A stretch of DNA of 56,617 nucleotides, filler included, from Dugesia japonica (Eukaryota): NCBI GenBank assembly GCA_001938525.1. It is 5 parts of 5 records of this genome, joined end to end, with 100 filler letters (N's around TTAATTAATTAA, not from the genome) between each part and the next. Parts side by side here need not be neighbours in the genome. Positions count along the whole stretch, not along the records: positions 1 to 12,357 come from MQRL01632032.1; 4 more parts are not named here. The stretch is one strand, 5' to 3'. Made by a program: the position numbers and the translations under genes. Numbering within the stretch: position 1 is the stretch's first letter; every line of letters begins with the position of its first letter. Of the stretch, positions 1 through 34,757 are shown in pieces. A model generated the notes under the pieces. The model was not told where the DNA came from and searched no databases. It worked only from the letters and a program-made list of their open reading frames with translations.

Positions 1-399
1 AAGTATTTCTCTGCTTCTTCTTTATTTCCATACATTAATAAATTTTAATTTCTTCTATTATTTTCGGAAACTCTAGATTTATAAACAAATTTATAATACC
101 AATCAAATTAAAAATACAATTACGTTAAGTTCAAATTAAAAATCTAAAAGTATTATTTAAAACAAATCCTATTTTACACAAAACAAATTTTATTATTTAA
201 TATTTTATAATAACTCTTTTAATAAAAAAATTGCATAAAAATTATAATAATCAGTAATTTTACATATATACTTCTTAGAGACATACTATAGTTAACAATT
301 GTTATTTAAATAGTGACATACTATAGTGAAGAACCAACCTTGGAAGGGGAACCCTATGAATTTAATTATCAACAATGAACTTACTGTCATTGACATAAT

Positions 400-1590
400 T
401 TATAACTTATATATCAAATTCAGTGCAATTAGCTTGTTTATTGTGAAATTGCCAGTTCTTTGTAGACCATGCGATGCAGATTCTTATGCTGGCAAGTGCA
501 AACTTTCTCATTACATTGACTTTGAGACCAAGGTATTCCAAGATAGACTCATTTTCAACACACCAAGATCCCAGACATTCAAATGAAATTGTCTCAAGAT
601 AGACATTCCAACTTGGAAGATTACGTTTAATGTTTTCTTTGATTAATGTGTATATCCTGATATTGATGTCTCTAGCCAATTTGATGTTGTTAGAAGTGTT
701 ATAAGGATTTTTCACATCCAGCAATATAATCTTACTCTATTCTACATTGATCAGTTGTAAATCAACTCAATTAGTGCGGTTCACAAATTCGCAAAACTGG
801 TGGACAATAAATTTGAAACTCGTAATTCAACGAAAAAAGTTCGCAAGAAGTTTCAGGAAATCATTGAAAAAAGCCAATGATGGACCGCAGTGACAAAGGA
901 CATGAACTTTGGTTTCAACAAGAAGTGCATATCTTCTGCAGACTTTATTTCCGAGACGAAGATTAGATCCTACAGGATGAGTGCATGTTCGTGCTTTATC
1001 TGCTTTATACTTGATATATAGTTTTGTCATAAAGAGGTCTATTCGAGAGTGGAGACTCACCAATTGAAGTACGTTGAAGGAACAATTGACTGACTACGTT
1101 TAAATTGAGAGTTCCATTTTTTAGTATGTGACTAGCTCATAATGTTGTGTAAGAGTTTAGTCCCTGTTCCCTTATCCTACATAGAAACCGAATAATTTCC
1201 TGCAGACAGATTGAAGGCAGATTCTGCGTTCATTGACCTGGAATCTTACTTGAAAATCGAATTTTTTCTTTAGATAAGTAATTGACATCTGAATTTTCGA
1301 TGACCAGCATTTTTAAATCGTGCAGGTGGCATGTTTCTGAACCCAGTTGAGTACCTTATGAATGGTGCATAGATTTGGAGGATTAAGCTGTTTGTATGCA
1401 GTATTGATAAGGTCATTTTTAGCTATATCGCTAACTATTACATCTCGACAAACAAGCATCTTGAATCCTTGAATGATTGATTGTATCACATACTCATCCC
1501 TGGCTTCAGTTAATCCAACTCCTCTGTTGGGGTGAAACACCCAGTCAACGAAAAAACTAGACCAGGAGGATCTTAAACCAGCAAGCACCA
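400..1590 (-). mobile_element. Degenerate 3' part of an RLE-type non-LTR retrotransposon (NeSL/Utopia-like): RT thumb, CCHC knuckle, restriction-like endonuclease
   Basis: Broken minus-strand frames, in order: thumb-like DWVFHPNRGVGL; knuckle CRRY..ETKVHVLCHC; endonuclease (V)DLQL..ILLDVKNPY; C-terminal LGSW..NESILEYLG..IAWS. This order and these motifs are typical of RLE-clade elements. Confidence 0.8.
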
Positions 1591-3139
1591 TAAAAAAAGA
1601 AAAAAATACTGTATGAGGGAAAAATACTAACATTAAAAACAAGACCGGGTAGGAAATTAATGATAAAAGGGAGCAACATAAGAAAAGTCGATAACCATGA
1701 ACCTGGATAATCAAACCAACATCCATTAATTAAAAAAATGATTAAATTATTATTTAAAGAAGCAAAAAAACTATTAACAAAAACAATTAATTATAAAGCA
1801 AATATGAATTAATTAAAGGTTAAAATAAATTAAAATTAGGCCGAAATCCATTTTATGAGAATAACTTTGCCCCAGAAGATCACAGGAACTCAGCGCAAGA
1901 AAATTCAGGAAGAGTGAATGGGGGGAATCTTAATTTTATAATTGAAAAATTATACCTTCATCCAGAAGGGTCCTATTGGGATCCAAAGATTTGGCCAATA
2001 CGGATTCAGAAAATAAAAATAAGACAAAACACAATCGATCACATGAGGTTTTAAAAATAACTGCCAATTAGAGTTCTAAAACTCTAAACAAATTACAGAT
2101 AATTATCATCAAAACCAATCAAGAACGGAAGATTCAAACTAAAAATAGCAGACCAACGACAATTAAGTTATGGTGTCTCGTAAAATGATATTTAAAATCC
2201 CTTGATTTTGAACGAAAAAACAACAAAAAAACAACAATTTTCATAGTAATTAAAACACTGGAAAACTCATCAACTAGTGAAAACACTACCAATTAATTTT
2301 CAAGAATTTAAAGTAACTACCGTTGATTTCACGTTAATATTTGGAAAAGAAAACAAAACCAGGTAAAGAGAAATCGTCTATATTAACTAAAATTAACTCT
2401 TGAAAATAAAGAACTAGGCATCATCTACCAATTCTAAATCGAACTATCAATTGGCCACTTTGAAAAATCCTGTTGCAGAATCCTAAATTCATTAGTAAGC
2501 AATGTGTTTCAATTTTATTGCTATATTATGATTTGATCATTAAATAAAATATCACTATAAATGTGTGTTTATAATCAGTCAATCAAAATATAATTAAAAG
2601 AAAATTTTTTCTAATTAAATGATATATTTAGTCATTTCTAAAAATAGCAATTCTTTTTATGATAGTTGCATGATTATCAGCGAAGTATGTTGTCNNNNNN
2701 NNNNNNNNNNNNNNNNNNNNNNNNNNNNNNNGATAGCACTATTAACATTTCGTTCATACCCACAAAATCGATAGCTCTAATTAGTTATCTATGTGAATAA
2801 TAGGTGTGCCGGCCGTTGTTCAATTAATGAGTCATCACTGAGGAGATGGCATTATTAGTTGTTTGCTAATATAATGAATGCACATTAATCAGCAAATTTG
2901 CCTCGTACCATGCTAGAAGTCAATCGATGATATAATCAAACTGGATTTTCGCATTTCAAATTGAATAACGTTTTAATAGTGGATTTTGCATTATGATGAC
3001 CACAACAACTATCAGAGATCGTCCGTTTCGTGACTCTATCCAGGTAGGCCATCGTTTCTTCTCTACAAATTAGGCCATACCGATAGTTAACTGTGGTGAT
3101 TCCCATCAAATTCCTCAATATGAATGAACTTCGTTGTTA

Positions 3140-3610
3140 ATTACGATTCAGCTGGTTTATGACAATATACGACTTATTTTGATTCCAAATATCATTTCCT
3201 GTCTATTTCTGTATAACTAATGAATAGTGATTCGATATTCGATTTTATTTTATTTCACATTTTGCATGAGTATTCATTGGATTAATTATACATAAGACCT
3301 CTTACTGATCGTCCTTGGATTTATTTTTGTATCTGAATTGAACCGGAAAANNNNNNNNNNNNNNNNNNNNNNNNNNNNNNNNNNNNNNNNNNNNNNNNNN
3401 ATTACGATTCAGCTGGTTTATGACAATATACGACTTATTTTGATTCCAAATATCATTTCCTGTCTATTTCTGTACAACTAATGGAAAGTGATTCGATATT
3501 CGATTTTATTTTATTTCACATTATGCATGAGTATTTGTTGGATTAATTATACATAAGACCTCTTACTGATCGTCCTTGGATTTATTTTTGTATCTGAATT
3601 GAACCGGAAA
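3140..3610. repeat. ~210-bp near-identical direct duplication flanking a 50-N gap
   Basis: 3140-3350 is repeated at 3401-3610 with a few substitutions; probably an unmerged allelic overlap, possibly a tandem duplication. Confidence 0.9.
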
Positions 3611-4768
3611 ATAATTTCTGAAACGATAAATCTAGTTTCACAAATATTATTATTATCATTATTATGTTTTTATAACCATTCTCATTGACCTCTGTATATG
3701 GACATTAGTGTTTTCCAATTCACCACAATCGCTAGGTTTGAGAAAATACAACAAGGGATTAGATTTTGATTTTGAAGACATCGTGGTGGTTATTGAAATT
3801 GCACTCCCTGTTATTATAGAATAAACCTGATATCGTTATCATTCATTATGATTAATTTATTAATTGCGGCCACAAATATATTATTTTCTTTGGTATTTAG
3901 TCTCATATGAATCGGGGTTTTATGGTGGATTTTTCCGGCTTTCTTATAAGTAAATAGCTGCGTTGCCAATATAAGTATGTCATCAGTAATTTTTTCTGCA
4001 TGAACAAAACTATTATTTAGATTTATTATAATCATTAATATTATTTACAATGTTGTTTATCAGGCTAATAAAAATAGCTCTTATATTGTAATTCAGCTCT
4101 TATACCACCACACTTTACCAATACCATTGCATCTACTGAGGCGTCCATTATTAGATCAATACTCGACAACATTATCATTGTAAGTATGGGTATAGATTAT
4201 TGAAGGTATTACGAAGGTTATACTATGATTAATTCTAATGTGGTCGTTCATATTCGTATTGCTATTACTCGCGCCCGCACTATCATTATTATTGAAATCA
4301 TTGCTTATAACCTGATCTAAACTATCCACCATCAGTAGTATATGGTTAACACTGGAAGTAACCTATAGATACATCTAACTATATTTTCGCTGGGATCGAA
4401 GCCGAAATCTTTAAATAAGATTTCGATTTTGTTGAGTCCTTATATTTTTCTTTCAGGTAGAATTCGAGAATTCTGAAAGATACGTTGTACCTAATTCGTC
4501 AAGAAAGAGAACAGGCCTGTTGTAAGCAATTGGTTGGTCACCTCCTATTCCCTCATCTTGTTCTTCACCAGGATGAAATGGATTTAAGGTGTTTTAGGGA
4601 TGTATATCCCTTCCCTTGGGGGGTAGACCTATACATTGAACCTGGCTATAAATCATAAAACAAACTTCAGTGTCGATGACGCTCATTGTTATTATTTATC
4701 TAATTTTGTTTTATATTTATTGATGTTTCGAATATCGTATTATGTTGACGGTAATTTAAATTTTTCAG

Positions 4769-5007
4769 TCAGAAATGGAATCAATATGGGAGAGGGTAAT
4801 GGACCGCATAACCGCGACGCGGGTGTTCTGTCTGACCGGTCGAACTTACCACCGGTAAATGCCATCGTCGCCCGTATCCAAGACTTTGGCGAGCGACAAA
4901 ATTATCGGAGTTGGACGGGGCCGGACCGAACCCTTGTCACAACATTCCATTATCAACCTACAGCCCCACCCCCAGCGGTGCAGGTTTTTATTAACAATTT
5001 ATTATAA
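4769..5007 (+). CDS. Short GC-rich ORF/exon of unknown family (MGEGNGPHNRDAGVLSDRSNLPPVNAIVARIQDFGERQNYRSW...)
   Basis: Open, visibly GC-rich segment after a tttttcag acceptor (AG at 4767-68); TATAAA at ~4647 and AATAAA at ~5112; no recognisable domain. Confidence 0.4.
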
Positions 5008-5189
5008 GTTGTAAGAGAACCCTCGGGTAGCGAGGATTCAGAGAATACGGCAACCATGGAAGATTAGACTCTTACCCATTAGTGTGTTGCTATTAAGTTT
5101 ATTGTGTGTTAAAATAAAATCACTAATTATTCTTTTCTTATCACTAAATCTTTTTATTCCGAAGTTGTCTTATATGAAAACTAAGATTA

Positions 5190-6166
5190 ATGGTAGTTAG
5201 TTGTCCACCGGGTACCAATAAATGTAAGTATTCGGTGCTACTCACCAAGGTTTTGTATTGTGTTTAACCGAAATTCGTTTTTTTCTAGTGCACTCGTTCT
5301 TGAATCGCACTACAGCACCAACCAAGAAAATGCGAGAGTCCAGCGATGAGGCCGAAATCACGTGGGACCTATACAAATTAGCAAAACGGCGATGGAAGGC
5401 CAGTACGGCATCCGCTGAAGCCAAAGTAGGCCGTTATAAAAAAATGTTTGGCTTTTAAAGCCGAGGCGGAAGAGTCCCACCGGCAAGAGAGAATCTGTAA
5501 GGCTCAATTAGAGTCGTTCACTGAGATTATCCGGTCCTACCAAGACCGAGAGAATAAATTGGTTCAGGATATTCACGAATTGAAAACAGCAATGCCCCTC
5601 GAACCATTGATGGTCGATAAGGGTAACCAGGCTCCAAGAACTTAATATCTGCCATTGCATAAATATATGTTTTGATATTAAAATTTATTTTTTTAATTCT
5701 ATTACTTTTGCTTAGTTAATTGGCCTATCTGTCACCGAACGAATAAACTAATGTTATATCTTGTTTAGTGCCGCGAATAACATTCCCAAACAGCTTAAGA
5801 AGATGTCATCGAATTATGCGACGTCTCCTAGTCGAGCGAAAACTTAAGCGAAAGACCGACTGAGCACTTCTGAAGCACCTTAATCAGAGAGATCAATTAA
5901 TAAGAAGTCTTGACTCGATAGTCAAACGACAGAGCAGCCTGGCCGAACAAACTAAGGCTCTCGCACAAGAAGCACAGTTACTGTTACAGCGCAAAATNGA
6001 ATTTTTGAAACAGTATATTGCCGATCTCTCCCGTCAACTAGGAAACCCTACATGGGTCCAATGGGACGATAACAACGATTCGGCATCGTTCAACGTTTTG
6101 ACGACCGATCCAGCTCAGTGGTTAGACCCGGTGCATTGGATATCATGTAATTTTTATGTAAAATAA
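5190..6166 (+). pseudogene. Three-exon spliced gene of unknown family, predicted coiled-coil protein (~250 aa), with one frameshift and one premature stop
   Basis: Exons 5190-5223, 5289-5622 and 5769-6166 join in matching phase 1 via GT-AG introns. Frameshift in an A-run at ~5440; in-frame TGA at ~5861; AATAAA overlaps the stop. Exons are GC-rich and introns AT-rich. Confidence 0.65.
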
Positions 6167-6227
6167 AGTTGTTATTGTTCTACTCATTCTAACCTTTAAT
6201 AAATTCGTAGTAATAGGGAAAATAGTG

Positions 6228-6400
6228 AACCCAAATCCAAAGGCCTATGGGCGCGCACCTCCCATTAAGCGAGAGGTCAACCATCATAAGCGAATACCTA
6301 ACCTAGGGGCGTTAGGTTAAATTCTTTGAAAGGTTCCCTGAGGGCTATTTTTCCCCAGTCACGTTTTCTTCACTCAACTCAGGTGGAAACCCAACACCTC
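6228..6400 (-). ncRNA. Candidate structured RNA motif, copy A
   Basis: Minus strand: gcttatg a tg GTTGAC ctctc gcttaat gggagG TGCGCGC ccataggcc TTTGGATTTGGGTTC. Stems acctctc/gggaggt and gcttatg/cataggc; outer stem gaacctttcaaag/ctttggatttgggttc. Confidence 0.55.
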
Positions 6401-6727
6401 TATGTTTTTTGGAGCTGTATAGGTAATCAGAAGCGATAATCCAGAAAATTTAATTGTAAACATCTACCCATAATAATGTAGCAATTATGTCTACACCAGC
6501 TACTATTGCAATGATTAAATATTTACATCATGTATTCGACAATCAAATAATTTACCTATAAGACATTATTATTTGCCAANTTTTTTTTCTCAACATCATT
6601 TTCATTAATCTTTGGAAAGTTACAGGTGTTCCGCATAATCTAGTAAACTTAAATTATCTATATTCTGTTTTGAATTCGGTTTTTTTTCTTTTCATGATAT
6701 AGGTACTTGATAATAACCATTGAAAAG

Positions 6728-6905
6728 TGTGATATATTTAAATTATGATAATATTTAAATCTATTTAAATTCAAATTATTGAATATTTAAAATTAAATAT
6801 TCAAAATATTAAAATGAATTTGATTTGTTGTAATATTGCTATTTTATGAAATATAATTTTAAATTGTTAAATATCTTATTATTTAATATCTACATTTATA
6901 TAACA
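6728..6905 (+). repeat. 5' LTR of Gypsy element
   Basis: Starts TGTGATATATTTAAA, ends TAACA, followed by TGGCGTC (PBS-like); matches 11806-11939. Confidence 0.9.
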
Positions 6906-7147
6906 TGGCGTCAAATGAACAGAAACATTATCTGCAGAAATTTATGTTTAAAGAATAGGAAGCTAAATTGTTCAAGTTCCGAAAGGACAATGAAAGCTCA
7001 GTCATCGAGAACATCTAAAAAATGTCATGGAAATTTTAGTTTATTCGATGCTTGTAGNNNNNNNNNNNNNNNNNNNNNNNNNNNNNNNNNNNNNNNNNNN
7101 NNNNNNNNNNNNNNNNNNNNNNNNNNNNNNNNNNNNNNNNNNNNNNN

Positions 7148-7900
7148 TACGAAGGTAGATATCGATTACTTGGAAAAACATCTTATCAATTTACTGGATG
7201 TTAAACCATCAAAAATTAACCAAGCTATGCAATACTTAAATAATTGCAGTATTGAGGAGAAAAATAACGGATTTTGCTAAGCGTATTCATATGGAGAGCA
7301 GAGTTTTATCTGACAAGAAATAGGAAATCATGGTAAAAGCATTTATTAATGTCTTGGGAAATAGAAAATTGGCAAATGCACTTAAAATATTCGAATCAAA
7401 ATGATTGGAAAAGATTGTAGAAATTATGAAAGATGAAAAATTTACAGATGATTACAAAACGAATGAAAATGTTTTATGTAATATGTGCCAAGAGAATGAA
7501 ACTATAAAGAATTTGAAAATTGAAATAGAAAAGCTAAAGAATGAAATTGCTGAACAAAGAGACACAATTACAAATTTCGTGCACCAAATGTGTTTAATAT
7601 AAATAGGAATAATAATGCACAAAGTTCTGAAAAAACCCAAAAATGTATAACTGTGGGTAGATAAGAAACAAGAACATACTTTACATGTGATAAAAAAAGG
7701 CCATCTAGCTAGAGACTGCAATATCAAAAAATGGTTCATGTATGGGGGTGACCATCTTAAAAGAAACTGCAAACAAAAAAGCAATCTAAGATACTATTAT
7801 GATGAAGAAGAGCAAACAAAATCCGTATCAACGATAAACCAAAAGAAGAAGAAGATTACAGCGCTCAAGAGAATACGATAAGTGAAAATAAACCATTTTG
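7148..7900 (+). pseudogene. gag: Gypsy gag remnant
   Basis: Coiled-coil segment followed by degenerate zinc knuckles TCDKKGHLARDC and (C)FM(C)GGDHLKRNC. Confidence 0.8.
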
Positions 7901-8033
7901 GAACATTCAAAAATCTACTGAACTAATTAAAACGTTTAAACCGTCACTTGAAGATGGTTATGTCAATTTTATCGAATGAAATGGAGCACGGCCAAGACAA
8001 ACACTTAAAAAATATGAACCAACACTAATATCA

Positions 8034-11000
8034 GTGTCAAGCATAGATAAAGCAAGAAATAAACCAATTCTTGAATGTCAGGTTGCAAGGATACCAGTAA
8101 AAACTATGTTTGACACGGGCGCTGATTTGAATGTTATAAGCCAGGTATTAGCCGAGTGTATCTGTAAAAAGAACCATGTTGTAAGAATTTTTAAATCTAT
8201 TACAAAAGTAACATGCGCAAATGGTACAACAGAAGAATGTTTGGAGAAGATATTATTAAATATGGCAATTGAACCTGTAATGACAGCACACGTGTTTGAT
8301 ATTATGCCAAATATATTTCCACATATATATTGGATTAAGAAGCATGAAGAAATACGAAATAATTGTGGATGCAGCAAATGATGAAGTAATAATACAGAAT
8401 GTTAAGATTCCATTTATTTCTAAAACAGTTCTAGCTGAATCAATAAAAAACTAACACCGACCGTGTTAATGAGTTGTAATACGGGATTCAGAAAAACAGA
8501 GACTCNTGAGATTTATAATGATAAACAATGCTATAGAATTGCGGTATCTGAATGCGTAGATGCAAGTAGAATTGGTGAATATTTTATCATAGGCATGATA
8601 ATGGACCACTCAGATCAGAAAATTACTTATGACATGAGTAAAGAATGAATTTTCACTGAGATAAAGAGAAAATGACCGTGCGGAAACTTTTAGTAACTGA
8701 TGGAATTACATTCGATAATAATGGATACATGTGAGTAAGAAAATATATGTTAGAAGGTGGATGTAAAGCTTTACACATCGAAACTACACTCGGATATGAT
8801 GAAGAGCTTAATCAAAATGAAGAAGTGTTTGAAAACGTATCACTTAGACAATTGTCCTCTGAAAAACAAAGAAGAGAGGAAGAAATTACGAACAATATAC
8901 TTCAGAAAATTAAAAATGATATGGAAGTTGTAAACAATTACTACGATGGGGTCAAAACATTAGCCACGCTTGAAAGGAATAAAGATGTATTTAGTCGATA
9001 TAAGATGGATGTGGGTAAAACTGATATTATTGAACATAAAGTAGAAACAACCAATAGCAGACCAATTGCTTTCAAGCCACGAAATATACCAAAAGAACTC
9101 GAAGAAGAAGTAGAACATATGGTAAACAATTTGAAAGATGCTGGTGTTGTAAAGCTGAGTACTTCTCCATGGAACTTGCCAATTGTAGTGGTGAAAAAGA
9201 AAAACGGTGATAAACGTATGTGTGTTGACTACAGTGTACAGAATGTTAAAACAAACCGACCAATATTTTCAATACCATCATCAGAGGAAATATTTGACAG
9301 TATTGCTGCAGCTAAGTAGTTTTCAATTCTAGACCATTCGAGTGGATATCACTAAGTGCCGATAGCTAAAAAAGATCAGGAAAAAACAACATTCAGCACA
9401 AATTTGAATTATACGAATTTACCAGAATGCCGTTTGGATTATGCTCAGCATCAGCGNNNNNNNNNNNNNNNNNNNNNNNNNNNNNNNNNNNNNNNNNNNN
9501 NNNNNNNNNNNNNNNNNNNNNNNNNGATGTTTTAATATTCGGTAAAACTGTAGAAGAGCATAATGAAAGACTAGATCAAATATTAAAAAGAATAAGAGAA
9601 GCTGGACTTAAATTAGCACCAATTAAATGTAAATTTTTACAGGAAAAATATACAATATCTCGGACATATAATAACTAAAAATTGAATCGCAACAGATCCT
9701 GATAAGATAATGGCAATCCTAAAATGAGAGATTCCTCAATTTCGAAAAGAACTTCAAACAGTTTTAAGGTTTTGTAATTATTATAGGCGATTCATAAAGA
9801 ATTATGCAAATTTATCAGAACCTCTCAGTTCGATGCTAAAGAAAATAAATGAAATAATGAAAATAAAGAATATTTTTACAAGCTACGTAAAAGATTGACA
9901 GAACCANNNNNNNNNNNNNNNNNNNNNNNNNNNNNNNNNNNNNNNNNNNNNNNNNNNNNNNNNNNNNNNNNNNNNNNNNNNNNNNNNNNNNNNNNNNNNN
10001 NNNNNNNNNNNNNNNNNNNNNNNNNNNNNNNNNNNNNNNNNNNNNNNNNTCAGAAACAGTACTGCATCACAAAAAAGACTTTCTGCCAATAGATGCGTTT
10101 GTCATCAAGTTTAAGCACTATTTAATGGGATCACAATTTGTGGTACGAGAAGGTCATCAAGCTTAATTGAAATAGCCCAAATACGCCACAATACTGCATT
10201 TGGAAAGCTGAACTGGAGATTTTTAGATATGATCGTATAATTTAGAAAAGATCGTGAACATTCACGATTATTAGATTGCGAGCAGTGTTTAATAAAACCC
10301 GAAGATCCAAAAAGGAAAAGAAACGTTAAAATATACAAAACAACAGACAAAGATGAAGAACAAAGTATACGCTNNNNNNNNNNNNNNNNNNNNNNNNNNN
10401 NNNNNNNNNNNNNNNNNNNNNNNNNNNNNNNNNNNNNNNNNNNNNNNNNNNNGGCTCTAGAAAGAAACGAGATAACACTTCGTGACGTAGAGGTAAATAA
10501 GGAAATACAATTGTATTGGGATAAAAAGAAAGAACTGCGAATATGAGGTGAGATGCTATATTTAGAAACGGATGAGAAATATCTTCTTATTGTGCCCAGA
10601 AATAAAAGAGAAGATGTCATTTGAAAATATCATAAGTTATTTGGTCATCCAGGAATAGAAAAACAACAGGAGTTATCAAAAATGAGTATTATTGGCCGTG
10701 TATGGATAAAAACATAAGAGAACAACTATCAAAATGTAAAAATTTTAATGCGCATAAATATATTAACGAAAAATTAAAGCACCATTACAGAATATATCCG
10801 AAAAAGAACCATTTCAAAGTATTGCAACAGATATTACAGGACAATTTAAACCAAGGCAATATGGTTATAAATATATTCTTGGAGTTGTAAATTATTTTTC
10901 GAAGTTTATATGTTAAATTCCATTACGAACAATAACAACTGAAGATATATGTGAAGCTCTTTGGATACATTGGATATCCAATTTCTGAATACCTAGTCGA

Positions 11001-11640
11001 ATTCACTTAAATTGTGGTAGTAATTTTAATTCAGGTGCATTTCAGAAATATTGCAAGCAATTGGGAATCGTGAAAACATTTTCATCTCCATATTACCTTC
11101 AAGAAAACGGATTAGTAGACAGATTATTTAGAATGGCAAAACCTATGATTAGAGCAGTACTAGAAGACAGGAGAATTCAAGATTAGAGTACTGTGGTACC
11201 AATAATAGAATATTGATTACGAACAGCAACACAAAAAACGACTAAGTACACTCCGTATGAAATAGTATTTGGGAGGAAACCTAGAATCGTTATGTGGAAT
11301 GCTGGAAGGAGGGAAACGAACATCACAAAGAATTCTGATCAATATGTAGAACAATTAAAAAGAAATATTATGAATATTCATAGCCATGTAAGAAAAAAGA
11401 TTGAAAAACCTAATGAAGTAACATCAGCTAAATAGGACAAATATCGTTGGAGAGATGAAATTAAAATTGATGATAAAGTTCCGATAAAAAACAATGCACA
11501 TAATGGTTTTAAAAGGCAATATATTGGACCATTTAAAGTAATAAAGAAAATGAAGGAATGGACTTACACTTTGCTTGATGAAAATAGAAACATTTTAATT
11601 CAACGAAATACAACCAAATCAAAAGAATACTAATAAATGA
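8034..11640 (+). pseudogene. pol: Gypsy pol remnant (protease-RT-RNase H-integrase)
   Basis: FDTGADLNVI; SPWNLPIVVVKKKNGDKRMCVDY; MPFGL; DVLIFGKT; GHPGIEK; SPYYLQENGLVDR; GPF; many stops and frameshifts. Confidence 0.95.
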
Positions 11641-11805
11641 AATTTCCTTCAAGTCCTGGAGCACACAAACATCAGTAAGTAGCAAACAGAAAACAAACTT
11701 ATCAGTACAACCTGACCGACGAAATGAGAGCGATATCAGAAGACATTACAAAGAGAGAATGATAAGGAAACTGAATCCTCAATATTGATAAAGCAAAGGG
11801 AGGAA

Positions 11806-11939
11806 TGTGATATATTTAAATTATGATAATATTTAAATATATCTAAATTCAAATTATTGATTATTTAAAATTAAATATTCAAAATATTAAAATGAATTTG
11901 ATTTTATGAAATATAATTTTAACTTGTTAAATATCTTAT
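11806..11939 (+). repeat. 3' LTR of Gypsy element (internal deletion, 3'-truncated)
   Basis: Preceded by PPT AAAGGGAGGAA; near-identical to the 5' LTR but lacks a ~17-bp internal stretch and the terminal ..TAACA. Confidence 0.9.
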
Positions 11940-12277: not shown

Positions 12278-12357
12278 AATTCAAAGTAAATCGGTACGCG
12301 CCTGCACTCCTTGGAGGAGTCACCGACGATGCCGAATGAACAGGTCATAAGACGACC
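12278..12357 (-). ncRNA. Candidate structured RNA motif, copy B (5' part lost in gap)
   Basis: Minus strand: ggtcgt ctt atgacc .. tcggcatcgtc GGTGAC tcct cca aggaG TGCAGGC gcgtaccga TTTACTTTGAATT. Stems actcct/aggagt and tcgg..cgtc/ggcg..ccga. Confidence 0.55.
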
Positions 12358-13539: not shown

Positions 13540-15250
13540 AATCGTGCGAAACATTTCGACTATTACCCAAGTAACTTTCAACATTACTTTCTAGAACACG
13601 GTATCTGTTAAGAAGACTTTTAAGGAGTTAGTAGGATAATATTATTTATACCTGACGTTTAATTTATAAATATCTTTAATAATTTCTTTTGGATTTTGAC
13701 TTTCAATATTCATTTTAAAAGTGTGACAATTTCATTAGAAACAGATTATTTAAACTACATGAATGTTTAGGTTTTATTAATTTTTGAATAATTAGAAATA
13801 TAGTTTTTAATTTCTTTATTTAAATAACGGCAAACTATTTATTATAAATTTAGTAAATAAAAATTAATTAGTTATAAATAATTACGAAATTTCTATATTG
13901 TTCATAATTCATTTGAAAGTATTTATTTTTAAAAAAATACAGAGATTAAGTATGAAACATATATGTAATACCCTACAAAATAAATTTAAAGTTTTACATA
14001 AAAATTTAAATAATAAATTTAATTTTTAATTAGTATTGTTTTTAAATTACTTGTCAAGGAAAATTTGCATCAATCGAAGACCCATAAATTAGTTTGTAAA
14101 TTAAAATATTTTCTTCATTGTTATTGAAATTTTTTTAAGAATAAACTATATTAAATGGTAATGGTTTCGTAAAATTATTTTGGTAAATATTATTTCAGTA
14201 ATAAATAATTATACTCATAAATAAATTATAAGTGGATTTAGTTCTAAGGCTTTTTACTTTTTTCTCGTGAGATTTCCATAGCTTTCTCCGTTGATTTTCC
14301 TATCAATTCTGGGGGTATATCCCAAAATAGTAAATATTTGCGAAATTATTTTTGCCCTTTTCTCGAGATTTGGCGAGTCATTGCGGAAACAATTCATTTA
14401 ACAATAACTTTCTTTCTTGCCAGTAATACTTGACGATCATTTTTCTATCATAGCAGATAATATTTCACAACACACTTTCTTTTATTTCTGATCGTCTTAA
14501 ATAATAAATTGTTTTCAGTGTTTTGTAAGATTTTACAAAAAATATTTATTTCTGTTTTTGAAATTTCTAAAAATTTATCGGGGATTCCGATTCCTGTAAA
14601 AGACCTTGTCATGTGGTTTATCATCTTAGTTTTTGTAAAAGCTGTGATCACGTTCTTATTTAANGAAAANTTGCAGCTAATTTGATTCTTCCCTGATTTT
14701 CTTGTTTTCTGTAAAAGAAATCGTTAATTTTGAATATCAGAGATTTCATTATATACTGTTTTTATTTTGATCACGAGTTTTATTTTTATTTTTGTTACGT
14801 TGTCTGTTTGTCTAGATAATTTTAGGAATTATATCTTTATTTAGTATATCTACAAGTAATGACATCGTTTCTAAATTGTCTGTGTTATTGGCTATGAAAA
14901 TTTATCGTATTTATTGGTGCATCTTTCGCATAAATAATTCCTTGTGTAACTCGTTTGATCCTGAGTTTGTTATATTTGATTGTAGATATTTGAGAATTTG
15001 CTTGAACTATCTGAATAAATCCCATTTATTTATTGTGCTTATTAAAACATTTTACAATTTTTGGAATGCTTTCTCATCTTTTACGAGTAAATCACTTTGA
15101 TTTGAGATTTTACTAATGTTATTAGGATTTGTGAAAATAAAGTTCTAATTTGTTAATTTTTCGAACTCTAAAAACCTTTGTGGGGTACTATTTTCGACAT
15201 TGAAATAATTTGTAATGTTTATTTTTAAAATTGTTATTGAAATTTAGTTC
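13540..15250 (-). mobile_element. Degenerate Penelope-like element remnant without a visible RT core
   Basis: Broken frames resemble PLE N-terminal motifs (ILNK..; ..RIKLAA) and post-RT motifs (RNDSPNLEKRA..FTILGYTP..). A hammerhead-like remnant lies at the 3' side (13548-13581). Confidence 0.45.
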
Positions 15251-15729
15251 AGATCAACAATATATTTTCCATGACATTCATTTTTAATTGATTACATTTT
15301 CTACTATTTCCCTGTCTATTTTCTTCATTATATTTTTATGCCTGCAACTAATGAGTAAACTGAAAGATATCTCTTAGTGTTCTCAATCAATAAACATCAT
15401 TGAAGTTTTATAGCTTATAATAGCTATTCTTAAAGCTCAACAATGGAAAAAGCATTTTAAGTTTTAATTGTTTTTAATTTATTTGTTACGTTTTTATTTG
15501 GACACAAATTTATGCTGCAAAACTTGTAGTTCGATTGATTTTTATTGTCTGATTTCTTGTCCTCTTTAAATTAAGTTAAGGTAATACTGCTTGTATTATA
15601 TATCTCTGTACTATTTACTTATTATTCATTATAAAACTATTCAATATATATTGGGAGAAATTATTGTCCCCAAGAGTATCAAAATAAAAAAAATCCGGTT
15701 GTTGGAAAATTTGATGTTAGTGTTATATA

Positions 15730-16734
15730 CAGGGTGTTCCAATTTAAGGTTACATTTTAAATTTTCAATAAAAGAAGCTAAATGTATGAAATGTAGTAAT
15801 ATATTTATTTACAATGATAGTACATATATTTCGGTTTAACAATGAAAAATAATACCATGCAAGTAACCTTCTGCTGAAACCACATGTTCTGGGTATTCAT
15901 ACCTTTAAATTTATGAAACAAAAAATTTCCAATCATATTTCGATATCGAGTTCCGGTAACTGTTACAGAATTTCCCGCTTCATTCTCAAAAAATAAGGAC
16001 CGATAACACCACTGGCCCAAAAACCACACCAAAAAATTACCTTTGGTGAATGGAATTGTTTTTGTTGTATTTCATGTGGGTTGTCATTGCCCCAAATTCT
16101 ACAATTCTGTGTGTTCACAAATCCTTCTATTTCAAAATATGCTTCGTCGCTAAAGATCACTTTTTTGACAAATGTTTCATTTTCATGCATATTTTCAATG
16201 GCCCATTAACTACATTTATGGCGTATTTCGAAGTCTGCGGGCTTTAATTGTTGAGTTATTTGAATCTTGAATGCCTTCAAATGAAGATCCTCATACCAAA
16301 TTCTAAATAACGTCGTTCTTGGAATGGATAGTTGTTGTAAATGACGACGGATTGAGGTTTTTGATATCTCACTCACACTACAGCTTACAGCTGCAATATT
16401 TGTTTCTGAGCGACCACTTTTATGATATTCTTGGCGTCGTTCATCTTTTATCNNNNNNNNNNNNNNNNNNNNNNNNNNNNNNNNNNNNNNNNNNNNNNNN
16501 NNNNNNNNNNNNNNNNNNNCATATTCAGACTTAAATTTTCTGCGAACTTCGGCATAACTTTCGCCGTATTTAAAATAATTTTTTACAATAAATACTCTTT
16601 GTTCAATGGTATAACGAATTAGTTTTAAAAACCTCATGAATTACTATTGCTCATTCAACAATTATTGATGTAATAAAAAAAACAGAAATAAATAGAACTA
16701 AATTTAAAATGAAACCTTAAATTTGAACACCCTG
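15730..16734 (-). mobile_element. Tc1/mariner element of rosa (DD41D-like) type, internally deleted
   Basis: TIRs CAGGGTGTTC(C/A)AATTTAAGGTT with TA on both flanks; motifs FSDEAYF, VNTQNCRIWG, HSPKV..WCG..VIGPYF, WFQQ; the third catalytic D region is missing. Confidence 0.9.
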
Positions 16735-19264
16735 TATATGTGTGTGTTTTATAAAATATACCAAATGAATATAAATAAAAATAAACATATAAAAACTAAA
16801 TTCTATTCCAAAAATTAAAAGTAAATTATTTTTATAATAAACGCTCATTTTTCGATAAATATTCAAAATATTTTCTTTTGGTAAATATTTAAACTTTCGA
16901 TATTTTCTGATTCAGTTTCTAGTAATTTTTTCGACTAATTTTAAACTTACAAATGTTGTTGTTTTCTAGAAATAGCCTCTAAAGTTTTATTTGATTTTTT
17001 ATTTAAAATTTTAATTTGTGTGTACAATGATGCTGCTTTATTATTTATTATACATAATCAAAATTATTACGATAATAAAATCAAAAATTACATGTATAGC
17101 GAGGTTTGTGTATTAGCAATTCGTCTAATAGCAATAATTGCTTTATAGCTAGGCTTTGCCATTAACCAACAATAAATTCATTAAAATCCTACAAACGAAT
17201 GGCCAAATAGTATATTGCTTAATAGTAATATTTGTTTAATAGCAAGTCCGTTTACATCACTAACGAAAAATTTATTTTATTTTGATGATCGGGAGCATGA
17301 AATTATATAATTAAAAATTTGATTAATTAAAAGTATTGTTTGTTTCAATAAAGATAAGTTAAGTTAATGTAGAATAAATAATTACTAAAAATAGTAATAA
17401 ATTAAATATTAATAAATAATCATTAAAATAATTTATTAAAATAAAAAAAATTTTCTTAAGTTTTTTTTTGAATTGTTTTAAGTAATTGTAAGTTTGCTCA
17501 AATAGTAACGTGGTATAGTTTAAATGAATATATAAGTAAACGCAAGATTGAACATCTTGCACAGATTTAATAATTTTTAAAGGTAAAAGAATTATTGATT
17601 TTTACTGGCACAAATTTAATAATTTTTTAAGATCATTTGTTCAGTTCCAAATTTATTTTGGAAATTAAATCGCAAATCGAAATTTGCAATTATTAATTGG
17701 AAAATTTACTACGGGAATTATTATTTGTTACAATAAGTAATTTTTTTAAAGAATTTTAAATTTAAAAATTGAGTTAGTAAAACTGGGATGGTACTATATT
17801 TTAATAATCATAATTGATAATTTATTAGCCCGTAAAGGACTAGTTTTTATTTTTTCAAGTGTTAATTAAATTCAAAGTTTTAGTTGAAAAAATTATTGTA
17901 AGTTTGTTATAAACTAGCGTAATATTTTTATAATACAATTTTGTCGATATTATTTTTAATAGTAAGTTACTGATAAGAATAAAAAGTTATTAATAATTAC
18001 ACTGAAGGATACTGTTGAACAACATTTTTAGCAGGTATCCTATATTTCCTAAAATCAATTTTAAAATTAACGAGACCCATAAATCTCATTTCTTGTTTCC
18101 ATTGCACAAAGGCGTTGTGTTGCAATTTGTTACTGCCTCCGTGAGTATATTCTTTATGTCAATAGATATTACTGAGTTCGTTAATAAATTATATAGGAAA
18201 GAGTTGCTCGGAAAGGGGTTTCCCTAAAGTTTTACCTACACGCCTATAAATTAATTTTGAGTCAAATAATTATTTGTTAGGTACCTGAGCCTACTAGGAT
18301 CTAACACAAGGATTAGCAAAATTTAAGTTTTTAACTTAGATTCCTCGAGATTATAACCTTTAAAATAAAATATATAAATGTTTTAAATGTATTTTATATA
18401 TTATAATTCTGGAATTTGTAATGTCTTACTTTTGACAATAGCTTAAATTTTGTTTTAATAAATTATTGTATTTATATTTGCTTACAGAATTTGAATTCTC
18501 CATAATTTGGCTACATTTTTATTAATAAAAGATTATTTTATTGCTGTGTTTGTTTTGGTTTGATATTATTAAATTATATATTCGAAGATAACGATTTTGA
18601 TATAATTCTATTTAAATAGCTGTTATTTCAGAATTTATTGTTTACGTATAAATTAATAGGGACATAACATAAAAAGATGGTCTACGGAATATCCCTTTAA
18701 TGTATATAAAACCCCTTTTTTAACTTGATTTAACAAACTACTCAACAGAAAATATTTCCGGTTCAATATACATTTAGAATATATTTAATATATCTATCTT
18801 TATTTCTGTAGTATTGNTAGATGTTGCGTTACACTTGATTATTTAAATTCTTCAAATTTGTATTGTGGTAATGGTCAGAATTGGAGCAGATATAGTGTTA
18901 TCTAATAAACCATTATTATTATTACTAATATTTATATTTTAATTTATATTTTAAAAATTTATTATTTTTAGAACAGATCATTTATTTATAAATGTTTAGT
19001 TATTTTAATCACATTTAAATATTTTAAGTTATCATTTTTGTATTTTATTTACTCCAAAATGTTTCCAAATTTTAAAAGTACATATGAAATTTAATTTCCT
19101 GATATAAAACCAACTGAAAACTTATTATAAATTTTATTATATTTCATGGCATAGCGGTTAAGGAAATTTTTTTTATAAATTATAACTAATTAAATCAAAC
19201 AAGGACTGTTTTAATATATAAAATAAATAATTCTGATATGAGTTTTTTTTAAATCACATTTTTC

Positions 19265-19877
19265 ATGACTTCTATCAATTTTATTGACGAAGAAGAATGT
19301 CCTAAGCATTCTGATTCACTCAATATTCCTGATTTTAGGGAGTAAGAATTTTTTAATCTTTAAATATAACTTGAAAATATTTTTAAAGTATCTATCATGG
19401 CTGTATGTCCAGAGAAGTTTCAGTTAAAACTTTAAAAGCTAGTGGTGAAAATAATTGTTATCTAGTTCGAAAACGAATTAATGCTGACGAAGATGAACAT
19501 TGTGTTGAATATATATTGTCATTTCTTAATGATGATGAAGATTATCATTTTAAGTATGTTTTATTTTTAAAAATAAATCAACTTTTAAGATGTATTTTTT
19601 TAGAATTAAAAAAGATAATAAGTATTTTATATTTGCTAATCGGTATTTCCCTAGTTTCAAATGCGTTATTTCGCATTACATGTTATCCAATATAATTAAT
19701 GATGCTCATTTAGAGTTTGGTGTTGTAAATGTAATTATTTGTTATTTTTTTAGTTATTCATAAATTAATATATTTCATAGAAAACTATAACAGCTATTCG
19801 GGAATCTTTACGAGGATTTTCATGTTATTTAGTTGATAATATTTCCAATGAAAGAATTATAGAATTACTTCATAAAT
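19265..19877 (+). CDS. Host gene exons encoding an SH2 domain (RASA1/p120GAP-like SH2)
   Basis: Exons 19265-19341, 19389-19553, 19604-19730 and 19781-~19877 with 47-50-nt GT-AG introns splice in phase to IYHGCMSRE..CYLVRKR..YILSFL..YHFKIKKDNKYFIFANRYFPSFKCVISHYM..HLEFGV. Confidence 0.85.
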
Positions 19878-21233
19878 GTAAATATAAATATTTCTATAAG
19901 TTAATTACATAAATAATTTTATAAATAAATATTCTAATAAATATTATAATCTATTCTTATCATCATGTTGATTTTCAATACCATTTTTATTTATAGAATG
20001 ATAAACACCTTTAAAATACAAGTAAAAACGGATCATTTTTGATTGAAAATTCAAAAATATAATTTCGTTGTATAATATTGTAAAATTAAATATTTTGTAT
20101 AGAATAATTTAACTTACACATAAAATTTACTTTTAATTGATTCTATATTGTATCCTTAAGTATACCTGAAATCCATGAAATTAATTTATAGTCTGAAAAC
20201 TTATTCTTTATTAAATAAATTAATTATGATATCCATAAAAATATTGATTTTTTAAATTTAAATTTTTATTGATTTTATTTTAAATTAAAATAAATCAATT
20301 TATATATTTATTTATCTATGAAATTATTATCTACGAATTTTTTAATTTATTTTTTGGATTAAAAAACATTTATCAAATAAACAAGCTTTATCATTAGATT
20401 TCCTAATAGAAATCTAAATTTAGAATAAAATAAATATTTCTAAAACAAATGAAAGACAAATAAAGAAGAATTCAAATCATTTTATGATGGAATTTTTTTG
20501 CGATTGTAATTATGTTTTAGTGAAAATAATCTGGTTGTTTTATTACGTATTCTTATTTGGATAATTGGTTCCAAAACGTGCGCTGTCGAAAATTTCCAAT
20601 AATACTCATTTTCTATGAAAGCAGCAATTCCAAAGGACGAATAAAAATCTATTGAATTATGTTCGCAATCAATAAATTAAACATTTTCGTAATAATAGAC
20701 GAATATTTTGANNNNNNNNNNNNNNNTGATTTTATTACTACTTCAAAACAATACTTTCTGTTCTAGATTATCTCTAGTTTTTTTGTTTCTCAATTTATCT
20801 GACTCGGTCAAATGTTGTAAACTTTGAATTAACGAATAAATTGTTTCAATAAATTAAAAAGCTTAGATCAAAATGTTTTTTTTNNNNNNNNNNNNNNNNN
20901 NNNNNNNNNNNNNNNNNNNNNNNNNNNTTAATTAATTAANNNNNNNNNNNNNNNNNNNNNNNNNNNNNNNNNNNNNNNNNNNNGCTTCCATTTCCTAAAA
21001 TTAAATTCATTAATTCTTCAGAATAAGGTATTACTTTTTTATTATTTTCAAAGTATTTCTTTCCATCTTTTTCAAATAGTATTATTGTAGGACCTTTACC
21101 AGGATAAATTATTGTTTGAAATTCTTTATTATGAAATTCATATTCATAAATATCTTGTAATTTAATTTTAAGTTTCATTGATTCAGATAAAATTGAATTT
21201 AAAGAAGTGTTTCTAAAGAATGGTTTTCTTTTC

Positions 21234-21830
21234 TCAAAAAGATTTTTTTACACTTTCAATTGCTTTAATAGTAGGAAGTTGTTGAGTAGTTAAAGTATCT
21301 TGTAAAGTTTTCGATTCAATTACTCCTGTAGTAAATAAATTAACATAATTTTCTTGAGTTTTAATTAATTCTTTCAAAAGTTTTATTCTTTCTGTTATTT
21401 GTTCACTATCCATTTTATTAAAATTTTTAAATGAATTATCAGGAGAATTATCATAAGGTTTTAAATATAAACCATCACCTTTTATTTTAACTTGCACTCC
21501 TTTCTTAGCGTTTTTAGTAATAATCTTTAATTGTGGATTAGGCAAATTATTCTTAAAATATTTATGAATTGCACTTCCTTGATAAGGTTTTAAGTAAAGT
21601 CCACTTCCTTCTTTCTTTGAAGCAATATCTTTATCTAATAATTCAATTTCTTTTTGTTTTTTTATTTTCCCAGAGCTTGTGCTTGAGCAGATCTTGAATT
21701 ACTAACTGTACTAGCAATTACACTCGAAATTCCAGCTGTAGAAGCTAAACCAGCTATAATTGGTGGTATTGCAGCTAGAAAAGCAAATTCTCCACTTTTG
21801 TTTGACCTTCGAGATCTTTGTGTTCTTTAC
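21234..21830 (-). pseudogene. Polinton small virion/membrane-active-type protein with repeated G(S/D)GLYLKPY motif
   Basis: GEFAFLAAIPPIIAGLASTAGISSVIASTV..., then EGSGLYLKPY and KGDGLYLKPY; frameshifted. Confidence 0.55.
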
Positions 21831-22137
21831 TCATTTTCTTTTTTAGTTCCTCTTTAAGCTTTTTCAATCCAATAGTTTTACTATTAATTTTTACAGATTT
21901 AGATTTATTTGAATTTACTAAATCAATTAAATCTTATTCTGAAGAATAAGTTGATTTAAAAGTGATTTAATAATAAGTTAACTTCTTAAATTATTTTTAA
22001 ATCACTTTTAATCCCATCCTCTCAATTTAAAGTTGAATAAAAAGAGATTTAAGAGGTGGGAGGATTAAAAAAGAGGTGAGGTGATTTTTTAAAATTGAAA
22101 CATGTTTCAATATTCAAATCCCTGAGGGCGCCATAAA

Positions 22138-22896
22138 TTATTCAAATAAATTATCAATTAATTCATCAGCTTCTCTGTCTAAATAGAAATAATTATATTT
22201 AGTTTTCAAATGTAAATTAACTTCATAATCATATTCCATTTTACTAGAAAAAATGTTACTAAATAAATCATAATAAACATTATCTTTANNNGTTTTGTTT
22301 AATTTAAAAAATATAAAACAATTGGAATTATTTCTAATATAGTTTTTATCTAAATGAAAATAAGTTTGTGAAATATAAATTACATTACAATGTACATGTC
22401 TACCTGTACTAAAATAACTTTTTTGTTCTTCTTGATTTTTTTCATTGACAACATCATCAAAAACTATTAAATTCTTTTTGTCTTTTGATAAATTATCACA
22501 AGGAATGATTTCATTCGCTTTATTACTTAAAATTACATTAATCTTTTTTGTTGAATACTTTTTAAAGGAAGCTCTTTGGGTAAACCATTGAATTACTTCT
22601 AATGGAAATATTAAAGAATCTGGAATTATATTTTGATTTTCAAAAGTAAAAATGATATCTTCTTTTGTTANTCCATTTTCAAAACCATGATATAATAATT
22701 GTAGTTCAAATTGATTTATAGTTGTAGAATAAATTATTAAATTTTCATATTCTAAAAACCCTGGAGTTAATAACATTTTCATTAATAAAACATTTTTACT
22801 AAATCCTGAAGATTCAATTATTAATAATCTAAAGTTAGATGGAAAGATTTTTTTATTAAAAATGTTTTTGTTTTTATTCCATATTAGTGAAGACAT
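22138..22896 (-). pseudogene. Polinton A32/FtsK-like packaging ATPase
   Basis: FRLLIIESSGFSK (decayed Walker A), LIVFDD (Walker B), GRH, ISQTYF..IRNNSN. Confidence 0.9.
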
Positions 22897-22929
22897 TTTA
22901 ATTTAGTAAAATTTATAAATCTGTTTTCT

Positions 22930-23350
22930 AAAGTTCATTATCATAAAATCTACCCAAGATCTTTTCGTTTTCTAAATCACTAATTCCATAAGTAAAAGGT
23001 TTTGTATTATAAACTCGAGTAACAATAAATTTTTCATTTGTCTATTTAGCTGTAAAACCTTTTTTAATTTTATTTTTATATTTAAAGATTCTAACTCTAT
23101 CTCCAATTTTAAATTTTTGTTTAAAGGATATTGAATGGGACTCTTTAGCATCATTTTCATAGTTATGATCTTCAATTATTTCTTTAATGGTTTCAGGGTT
23201 TTCACTAGCTTCTTTTGGTGTTGATTTAATAGAACTATGAAAAATTAAATCTGCAGACCAAGTTTCATCAATTTCATTAACAATAACTTTTAAGAAATGT
23301 TTTGGTTTTCTATATTTTTTATGTAATTCTTCTGCTAAAATTTTGTTATT
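22930..23350 (-). pseudogene. Polinton retroviral-type integrase with the catalytic core deleted
   Basis: ILAEELHK..IDETWSADL is joined in frame to HSSIKSTP..KFKIGDRVRI..KGFT. Confidence 0.8.
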
Positions 23351-23389
23351 ATCATTATTTTTATTTGAATTTGTGAGAAAAGTATTCGC

Positions 23390-23720
23390 TTCGCTCAGAC
23401 TTATTCCACTACCAATAATTATTTTACCTTTCATTGCAAATTTTACCATTTTAGATTAGGAATATTATTCAAATCATGAATAAAATTAACATCAGCTAAA
23501 TGTCTTTCTCTTAAATTTTTATTTTTATAGGATAAATCATGTTTTAAAGCCGCTTCATCTACTCTATTAATTGATTCTACTCCAGGTTTTAGATTATCTT
23601 CAGAATTTAATCTGAAATCTAATTTTGTTCCATGTCCAGTGTAATTATGTTTAAATAAATGTCTTTCTCCTGGATACTTTTCCCAAGTAAATGGTTTTAA
23701 ATTGCTGAAGTTAATTTAAA
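23390..23720 (-). pseudogene. PLA2X (parvovirus-like phospholipase A2 domain), missed by the ORF track
   Basis: Manual translation: PGERHLFKHNYTGHGTKLDFRL..INRVDEAALKHDLSY..RHLAD, i.e. a YxGxG-type Ca loop plus HDxxY. Confidence 0.85.
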
Positions 23721-23881
23721 AGATTGAAGGTCTCCACCTTGCTTTAAACAAATACGTAAATGTCTAGCTTTATTTTTTCTAAGTAAGATTTTGTTACAAT
23801 TTTTACAAATATATGGGACCCTTTGGGTTTTATTATCTATTTGTTTTATTTTTAACTTGAAATATTAAAGTGGCTGATGCA

Positions 23882-25249: not shown

Positions 25250-26067
25250 TTTGGTAAATCTTTCTCATCATTAAAAACTTTAGTTCATAAAGTTAAATCA
25301 TATCTTGTTTCAAAATTATTAGATTGATAATAATTAAAACACTCTTCTAATTTATTATACGTTTCATTAAAATCATTTTGATCTCGGTCTTGGACTATTT
25401 TCCATCGATTATAACGACCTGGATTTTTTGTTGCTATCAATTCATCATACGCATAACCAGTTTATTTATTAGTTCTGTTTAATTTTTCTGCTTTAATATT
25501 ATATTCTTCAATATTTTTACTTACTAATGATTCATAGTGTTCTTTACCAAGAATCATTAATGGCATCTTTTTATATTATTAATTATAAATTATATTTTTA
25601 TAAAAATTTTACTTGCAAAACACTTGTAAATGAATTTTATTTGTAATCATGTTTTTATTTCCATTTGTATTATCATTTATATTTTTACTTACAGTTCTAA
25701 TTTTAGGTTTAGTAGTTTTGTGTGTTGTGTTTCTATTTATGTTTATGTTTTTGTTTATATTTAAATTTTTATTAACCATGTTTTATTTTTTTATTCTATT
25801 TAAATATTATATTTTTTATTGTTTCTAATTTTTTCTTTTGTTGTTTCTAATTCTAGTTTTAATTCATTTTTCAATTGTGTTAGCTCTTTAATTTTTATTG
25901 ATGCTAAACTAAGGGCTTGTTTAAATATTCTAAACCTTGGATAAACTCTAAATCTTTTTTAACCTCTTTAATTAACTCTTCCATTTTTCTAATAATAAAA
26001 TCAGAAGATTCAAAACTCCAAATCAAAGCCCAAAAACTTCAAATACAATTAATCGAACCCAAAAGAC

Positions 26068-34662: not shown

Positions 34663-34757
34663 ACCTATTCACAAATTCATTTTATTTTGATCGAAGCTTT
34701 TTATTTATTTAAATGAAATCTATATTAACTAACATTGTTTTTTATCAACTTTTGATA

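Follow-up and report, generated by a model that had tools for sequence, protein, structure and literature searches.

A GC-rich cassette of small, putatively spliced genes in what is very probably a dead copy of an old, high-copy mobile element

Composition and Genomic Setting of the Cassette

The window (the whole stretch of DNA analyzed, 56,617 nucleotides long) is eukaryotic DNA, presumably of an invertebrate, with spliceosomal introns and numerous decayed transposons, and it is AT-rich as a whole (GC 0.276). Its sole GC island lies at 4458-6440, where the GC content is 0.409 compared to a maximum of 0.333 across 507 other 2-kb windows. The exon-like blocks of this cassette have a GC content of 0.41-0.50, versus 0.21-0.25 in its AT-rich spacers and 0.19-0.32 in four host-like exon pieces, a comparison set that was picked by eye; a composition control is provided by the exons of a host-like gene for a coiled-coil protein at about 31990-32101 and 33518-33594 (plus strand), which are very rich in AT (GC 0.2). 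CpG is not depleted. The GC-rich character that the initial annotation attributed to the cassette is thus confirmed.

Several other elements share the window. A decayed Ty3/gypsy-like element (6728-11939, plus strand) has AT-rich LTRs, the left one from 6728 to about 6905 and the right one from 11806 to about 11939, where it is truncated. It also has a TGG primer-site-like start, and a purine tract precedes its right LTR. Both LTRs are part of this separate element and not of that of the cassette. A Polinton/Maverick remnant with Pox_A32 ATPase and double-jelly-roll (DJR) capsid domains occupies about 21000-26070 (minus strand), and more Polinton-like scraps were noted by eye at about 39200-41200. 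With labels assigned partly by eye, there are also a second gypsy-like element at 42687-47857 (minus strand) with a mariner-like insert at 46300-46800, a hAT-like element at 48538-50944 with 157-nt inverted arms and DUF4371, and two Tc1/mariner-like elements with TIRs (15725-16739 and 34748-36132). Decayed LINE-like frames at about 400-1500 (minus strand), for which Pfam gave no match, resemble the C-terminal part of an R2/NeSL-type LINE. A link between the cassette and this remnant, which we take to be of REL type, was rejected on reading the sequence, as unrelated A-rich DNA and a gap lie between the two. A 211-nt direct repeat (3140-3350 and 3401-3611, 97% identical) flanks a 50-N gap and is most likely a scaffolding artefact.

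Gene Models and Predicted Splice Sites

Splice sites were ranked by a simple score among the 141 GT/AG sites of 3700-6300. Three plus-strand blocks at 5190-5223, 5289-5622, and 5769-6166 are bounded by GT..AG, are in phase 1 at both putative introns and, when joined, comprise 766 nt, or about 254 codons if one frameshift is allowed. Exon 1 (5190-5223) comprises 11 codons, with an ATG, and has a phase-1 donor GTAAGT; this donor and the acceptor of the putative intron 1 (5224-5288, 65 nt) both rank 1 of 141 and are the best sites of the region. Exon 2 (5289-5645 at its longest) ends either at a donor after 5622 or at the stop at 5643-5645. The putative intron 2 is doubtful, since its donor scores only 5/8 (rank 8-16 of 141), the exon-2 frame continues past 5622 through GC-rich (0.43) bases to the stop at 5643-5645, and the AT-rich stretch of 123 nt that follows (5646-5768), which is either the remainder of intron 2 or an intergenic spacer, resembles the three other AT-rich spacers described below and carries an AATAAA at 5742. 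Exon 3 (5769-6166) has an ATG of its own at 5816 and a Trp/Asp-rich tail, its terminal stop overlaps an AATAAA at 6162, and it may be either a gene of its own or a last exon used alternatively. Judged from the sequence, two models appear equally plausible: a single three-exon gene for a protein of about 254 aa, or a gene with two exons and about 129 codons, behind which lies either a second gene or an alternative last exon. The three-exon gene of about 250 aa proposed in the initial annotation consequently holds up in its coordinates, GT..AG boundaries, phase, and intron 1 sites, but the 5/8 donor of intron 2 is weak and the single protein is unproven. The copy in the window is interrupted, as that annotation had also claimed, by one frameshift (the A-run at 5438-5444) and one stop (5861-5863), and it contains one N at 5998. 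At the A-run, one of five contigs from the public run X2 (depth 64.5 of 144.9; see below) has an indel relative to the window, the other four having none listed.

Two further plus-strand units precede these exons. Unit 1 (4461-4658) is a 65-codon open frame that opens at splice acceptors 4456 and 4460, the former ranking 2. Because it starts at these acceptors and its first in-frame ATG is found only at 4578, it is probably a last exon rather than a free-standing gene. Unit 2 (4769-5067), likewise GC-rich, contains two open frames, one of 73 codons (4786-5007) and one of 27 (4775-4858). The stops of both frames stay stops in about 98% of the X2 depth, and the earlier suggestion that the block is coding to about 5067 is therefore unsupported. 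Farther left, the lower-copy part of the repeat (3401-4455) holds two candidate small exons on the plus strand (3901-3949 and 4097-4179), proposed speculatively from splice-site ranks and open frames, and an AT-rich spacer of 122 nt (3975-4096). By itself, an open frame is a weak argument for coding (shuffle P = 0.02-0.12 per block). The TATA-like and AATAAA words reported previously are present, some of them inside exons.

Unit 1 is separated from unit 2 by an AT-rich spacer of 110 nt (4659-4768) with a splice acceptor at its end, and unit 2 from exon 1 by one of 122 nt (5068-5189) with an AATAAA at 5113. Two regularities were noticed after the fact: four spacers of 110-123 nt lie in front of exon-like blocks, three of them with a ranked acceptor at their end, and phase 1 relative to the long frames prevails among acceptors and donors. 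The spacers share their AT-richness and no further common sequence motif. The pattern suggests either an operon-like row or a single leader exon that is joined to one of several last exons. Flatworm spliced leaders are described as ending in AUG, and candidate flatworm operons as having spacers of <300 nt (PMC12582326). If the host is a flatworm, the AUG of such a leader could supply the start that unit 1 lacks. The RNA data comprised 0 reads for run X3, 30 for X4, and 7 for X7, all partial and none across the putative junctions, numbers that are too few to bear on splicing.

Copy Number and Repeat Structure

Four public runs of 24 were compared with 3401-6720 at 85% likeness. Run X2 consists of contigs and was treated as DNA because all 30 bins, including the introns, are covered and because one contig is identical to 6360-6623 at a depth of 12. 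It holds 4005 contigs on 3401-6720 (289 at 99+%, 814 at 95-99%, 1734 at 90-95%, and 1168 at <90%), and its summed depth is far above that of unique contigs (about 10-12), although summed depth does not equal copy number as short overlapping contigs inflate the values. The depth is mostly 50-520 over 3401-4732 (one low-complexity bin reaches a depth of 2469) and 430-3500 over 4733-6175, apart from a peak of 28,778 at 5510-5620 in the 3' half of exon 2. At 6176-6397 it amounts to 15,000-20,000, after which it drops over the last three bins to 164 (6398-6508), 33, and 11 (6620-6720). The region of the structured motif is ten times deeper than exon 3. In order of magnitude, the repeat family comprises hundreds to a few thousand copies.

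Individual contigs link parts of the cassette in other copies. Contig 4 runs from the left part into unit 1 (4112-4506), contig 5 crosses the putative intron 1 (5218-5406), contig 6 covers 5987-6179, and two further copies connect exon 3 with the motif region (joints 6078-6215 and 6093-6188). The right edge of the repeat lies at about 6400-6435 (within the stretch 6361-6435): the high-copy likeness extends to about 6400 and the flank is unrelated from about 6430. A 1274-nt contig (contig 8) matches 6430-6623 alone, marking a junction with unrelated DNA at about 6430, and it is from this one junction that the dispersal of the copies is deduced. The left edge is close to an assembly gap, and the copy has no legible target-site duplication. 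None of the eight joints listed for X2 matches 5223/5289 or 5622/5769, i.e., no intron-less copies were encountered among them, and the putative introns are present in DNA copies.

Coding Selection Across Copies

Of 398 loose ends, 9 were listed; six of these derive from X2, four in coding parts (next to 5509, 5563, 5569, and 5999) and two in the motif. The consensus rows of these ends were counted by hand against the codons of the window. All four coding rows are stop-free in the proposed frames, and they keep the residue at 5, 5, 7, and 4 of 9 whole codons per row, 13 of these 21 via a synonymous change. Differences fall at codon positions 1, 2, and 3 in 17/40, 7/40, and 27/39 cases, respectively (position 3 vs. 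2, Fisher p = 4e-6 for the four rows of exons 2 and 3), with the caveat that two rows overlap in place, that only a small number of contigs support the distal letters (agreement 0.67-0.88) and that a single run is involved. For exon 2 alone, position 3 differs at 21/30 sites and the others at 14/60 (Fisher p = 3e-5), which shows that exon 2 is real coding sequence, conserved among subfamilies under purifying selection during the spread of the family. The single row of exon 3 is less telling (6/9 vs. 10/20, p = 0.45); coding under selection is probable here too, if weakly indicated.

The evidence for the family thus comes from one run (X2) and 9 of 398 loose ends. Given the copy depth and the diverged subfamilies that conserve the exon-2 frame, the cassette is a repeat family and not a single-copy host gene. 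No single-copy conserved host orthologue turned up: the repeat is high-copy and has no homologues among the sequences searched. The high copy number, the conserved exon-2 frame in diverged subfamilies and the joining of exon 3 to the motif region bear out the initial annotation in regarding the cassette as cargo of a mobile element rather than as host genes.

The Structured Motif Adjoining the Cassette

A multi-stem structured non-coding motif (copy A) lies at 6215-6360 on the minus strand. In this stretch, which was chosen after inspection by eye, folding gave a z-score of -2.97 on the minus strand and of 0.04 on the plus strand, and in the wider stretch 6190-6400 the values were -2.03 and 0.23, respectively. 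G-U pairs are commoner on the minus strand. This asymmetry agrees with the proposal that the cassette runs antisense to the motif. A search of the whole window against Rfam at E ≤ 1 yielded one unrelated weak match, and no family for the motif, no hammerhead and no other ribozyme. Among the matches from motif scans, 74 viral ones were unrelated on inspection and were discarded, as were one from a metagenome and three viral ones in which the likeness stops at the pattern. Both arms of the hairpin at 6296-6322 consist of CCTAA/TTAGG-like pentamers, which we take to resemble the arthropod telomere repeat; this may be due to chance.

Two short look-alikes of the motif, each a variable hairpin between conserved short flanks, were found at 12284-12345 (minus strand), on the far side of the gypsy-like element from copy A, and at 41545-41610 (plus strand). 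Their folding is on a par with that of shuffled sequences (z -1.4 and 0.5), and the consensus fold of the three copies (-2.57 kcal/mol) contains no covariation term, so a common structure is not demonstrated. The look-alikes may be traces of further families within this class of elements.

Predicted Proteins and Homology Searches

Single-sequence AlphaFold2 models were made for exons 2 and 3 separately. Exon 2 is predicted to form helices at residues 19-47 and 51-100 (pLDDT 80, pTM 0.44) and exon 3 at residues 7-29, 33-74, and 78-90, followed by a low-confidence tail (pLDDT 80, pTM 0.43). Such long helices fit the coiled-coil character that had been proposed, although the models are uninformative on the protein family.

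The exons were searched separately, which lowers the sensitivity. Exon 3 had no matches at E ≤ 0.001 among 1.84 billion protein representatives, and its model none among 29 Foldseek candidates from BFVD at the same threshold. In the protein search, 0 of 217 "longer" and 0 of 2 "near" candidates were retained for exon 2, and 0 of 1 "longer" candidates for unit 1. The Atlas has no entry for a 49-aa part of exon 3 or for unit 1, a blank that signifies neither novelty nor absence. Pfam returned only sub-threshold coiled-coil families for exon 3, and PHROGs a single match to the cassette pieces (E = 0.099). Three short, decayed open pieces on the minus strand at 2939-4362 have no Pfam or PHROGs match. 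Among PDB sequences, NDUFB10 (E = 0.004 across some 40 residues of helix) and designed bundles of helices were rejected as composition matches. Locus scans retained none of the candidates from viral contigs (0 of 21 and 0 of 25), metagenomes (0 of 338), and prokaryote genomes (0 of 351). A match of unit 1 to the capsid ORF of viral contig L079 was rejected because it comprises just a seed word and an 11-residue gap; positions 1-5479 of that contig are dicistrovirus-like, with an RdRp ORF and a capsid ORF, and unrelated to the cassette. With no viral family, fold or contig matched and this one hit a seed artefact, the virus-like nature entertained in the initial annotation finds no support. Word-based rather than sequence-based searching of the literature brought up no description matching this element, which may already be catalogued in some repeat library.

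Origin of the Element

In all probability, the region from about 3400 to 6430 is one copy, now dead, of a mobile element that is old, high in copy number and restricted to its lineage. How this element was copied is far less certain. A retro-copy made in the sense orientation ordinarily loses its introns. The presence of introns in DNA copies therefore implies that the copied RNA was antisense to them, that introns were retained as in Penelope-like elements (PLEs), or that copying proceeded as DNA.

We tentatively favor the first of these, without considering it probable: the element would be a retroelement that is copied from a minus-strand RNA starting near the motif at 6215-6360, and the cassette would be its spliced accessory unit in antisense. 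This reading is preferred for two reasons: the genes and the fold are on opposite strands, and antisense ORFs of plant LTR elements offer a precedent. In Grande, RIRE2, and Retand such extra ORFs are described from all or most copies, with no database matches given for them and an SMC-like domain in one; antisense accessory genes of transposons are described as lacking an established function (PMC7264820). Rotifer LTR elements, moreover, are described as expressing extra ORFs with coiled coils from spliced messages (PMC5408684). For the present element, the motif (6360-6215) would be situated near the 5' end or in a terminal repeat of the minus-strand RNA and could act as a replication or packaging signal, while the cassette would be a separate transcription unit on the plus strand, spliced and polyadenylated to yield two to four small accessory proteins. 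With the copied RNA antisense to the introns, these would come through copying intact. To judge from the models and by analogy, the proteins would most likely be non-enzymatic oligomerizing scaffolds for particle or RNP assembly, or regulators of host silencing, roles of the kind suggested for the antisense extra ORFs of plant LTR elements. The window copy of the cassette element, which runs into a gap, yielded no RT, gag, integrase, LTR pair, PBS, or PPT, and likewise no replicase, terminal repeat, TIR or, in the window, second copy of the terminal region; gag and pol could be absent from this copy or lie beyond the assembly gap at 2695-2730. Against this interpretation, the depth declines toward the left, the trend to be expected of a 5'-truncated element on the plus strand and not of one with an RNA that starts at the right, although the 85% likeness cut-off could give the same fall. 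Furthermore, the plant antisense ORFs are described as lying mostly between pol and the 3' LTR, not adjoining the 5' end (PMC7264820).

The same climb in depth toward the right edge would suit a PLE of the Athena/Terminon type on the plus strand, mostly 5'-truncated, in which the cassette is a sense, operon-like row of 3' accessory coiled-coil ORFs with retained introns. Terminons are indeed described as mostly 5'-truncated and as carrying coiled-coil accessory ORFs (PMC6431247), and PLEs as retaining introns (PMC8557442), so that introns kept in the DNA copies are in line with this origin, without being specific to PLEs. We nevertheless consider it unlikely, as the terminal structure folds on the minus strand, no RT is seen, and Rfam disclosed no ribozyme, a point of less weight as Naiad PLEs are described as lacking a hammerhead as well (PMC8557442).

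Comparably unlikely is an element copied as DNA (Helitron-like, another DNA transposon or an integrated DNA virus) with compact spliced genes and with the motif as a terminal fold of single-stranded DNA. Introns would then persist without any RNA step, folding that tolerates G-T pairs would suit single-stranded DNA too, and the head-to-tail genes, the spacers of about 120 nt, the stop overlapping AATAAA and the undepleted CpG would all be in keeping with such a replicon. However, no match to a transposase, Rep, polymerase, or capsid and no TIR was found, and the Polinton remnant of the window, with a GC content of 0.23, bears no likeness to the cassette.

It is less likely still that an undescribed element class of hundreds to thousands of copies is involved, in which alternative splicing from a single leader exon, or SL trans-splicing, would resolve an operon-like series of small ORFs that are set apart by spacers of about 120 nt, are each opened by an acceptor and lie antisense to a new structured cis-RNA common to other repeats of the same genome.

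Purifying selection and canonical introns would also be expected of an expanded lineage-specific host gene family or operon with a pseudogene in the window, and spacers of <300 nt are described as typical of candidate flatworm operons (PMC12582326). This is very unlikely in view of a depth that exceeds the value for a unique contig by a factor of hundreds to thousands, an exon GC content about twice that of host-like exons, the setting in a graveyard of transposons with a sharp junction at about 6430 and, as a weaker argument, the near absence of poly(A) reads in two libraries that do contain a few related reads. Just as improbable is a chance composite of a GC-rich non-coding repeat with an accidental exon pattern beside an independent short SINE-like repeat (6176-6400), since the individual weakness of the open frames, the lack of homologues wherever searched and the tenfold depth of the motif region over exon 3 are outweighed by the third-position bias of exon 2 (p = 3e-5), the top-ranked splice sites and the linkage of exon 3 to the motif region in other copies.

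New proteins, and conflict between host and element, can originate from the accessory genes that transposons carry, a source about which little is understood. An abundant family with selected, putatively spliced genes would provide many natural copies for the study of dN/dS, covariation and knock-down. If the element belongs to a known LTR, DIRS or PLE lineage, the addition is modest; if it is true that it lacks any known replicase, it would represent a new kind of element.

Comparison With Known Systems

The antisense ORFs of plant LTR elements, i.e., gene23 of maize Grande and those of rice RIRE2, Silene Retand and bean PvRetro13 (ORF2), resemble the cassette as described in being unmatched extra ORFs that recur from copy to copy and are opposite in strand to the RNA presumed to be copied, and the antisense promoter of HTLV is a retroviral analogue (PMC7264820). 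The cassette differs from them in its several small units, its putative spliceosomal introns, its animal-type genome and the structured motif adjacent at its terminus; since no LTR pair or gag-pol is seen here, membership in this group is not demonstrated.

With the Terminon and Athena PLEs, as far as these are described (PMC6431247; PMC8557442), the element has in common coiled-coil accessory ORFs, kept introns, a structured terminal RNA and a copy number that rises to one end. In contrast to them, no hammerhead was found for it and no RT is visible, its fold lies opposite to the ORF strand, and the copy is located among interior transposons. A Polinton/Maverick remnant is likewise a multi-gene mobile element with short AT-rich spacers, but the cassette lacks both the A32-type ATPase and the DJR capsid of the remnant in the window and shares no sequence with it; pPolB, integrase, ATPase, DJR capsid, and TIRs of Polintons and adintoviruses were not found in the cassette pieces.

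Burro, the giant gypsy element of planarians, is described as present in thousands of copies in an AT-rich invertebrate genome and as carrying accessory ORFs and Smc-like motifs (PMC6431247), features that recall those of the present family. Its MATH, BIR, BCL2, ankyrin, and env domains were not found in the cassette pieces scanned and, in a comparison by description and not by sequence, Burro has mainly one very large polyprotein (PMC6431247) where the cassette has small, putatively spliced units. By analogy, and with membership in none of these groups demonstrated, the element would seem to work like the accessory-ORF regions of known retroelements.
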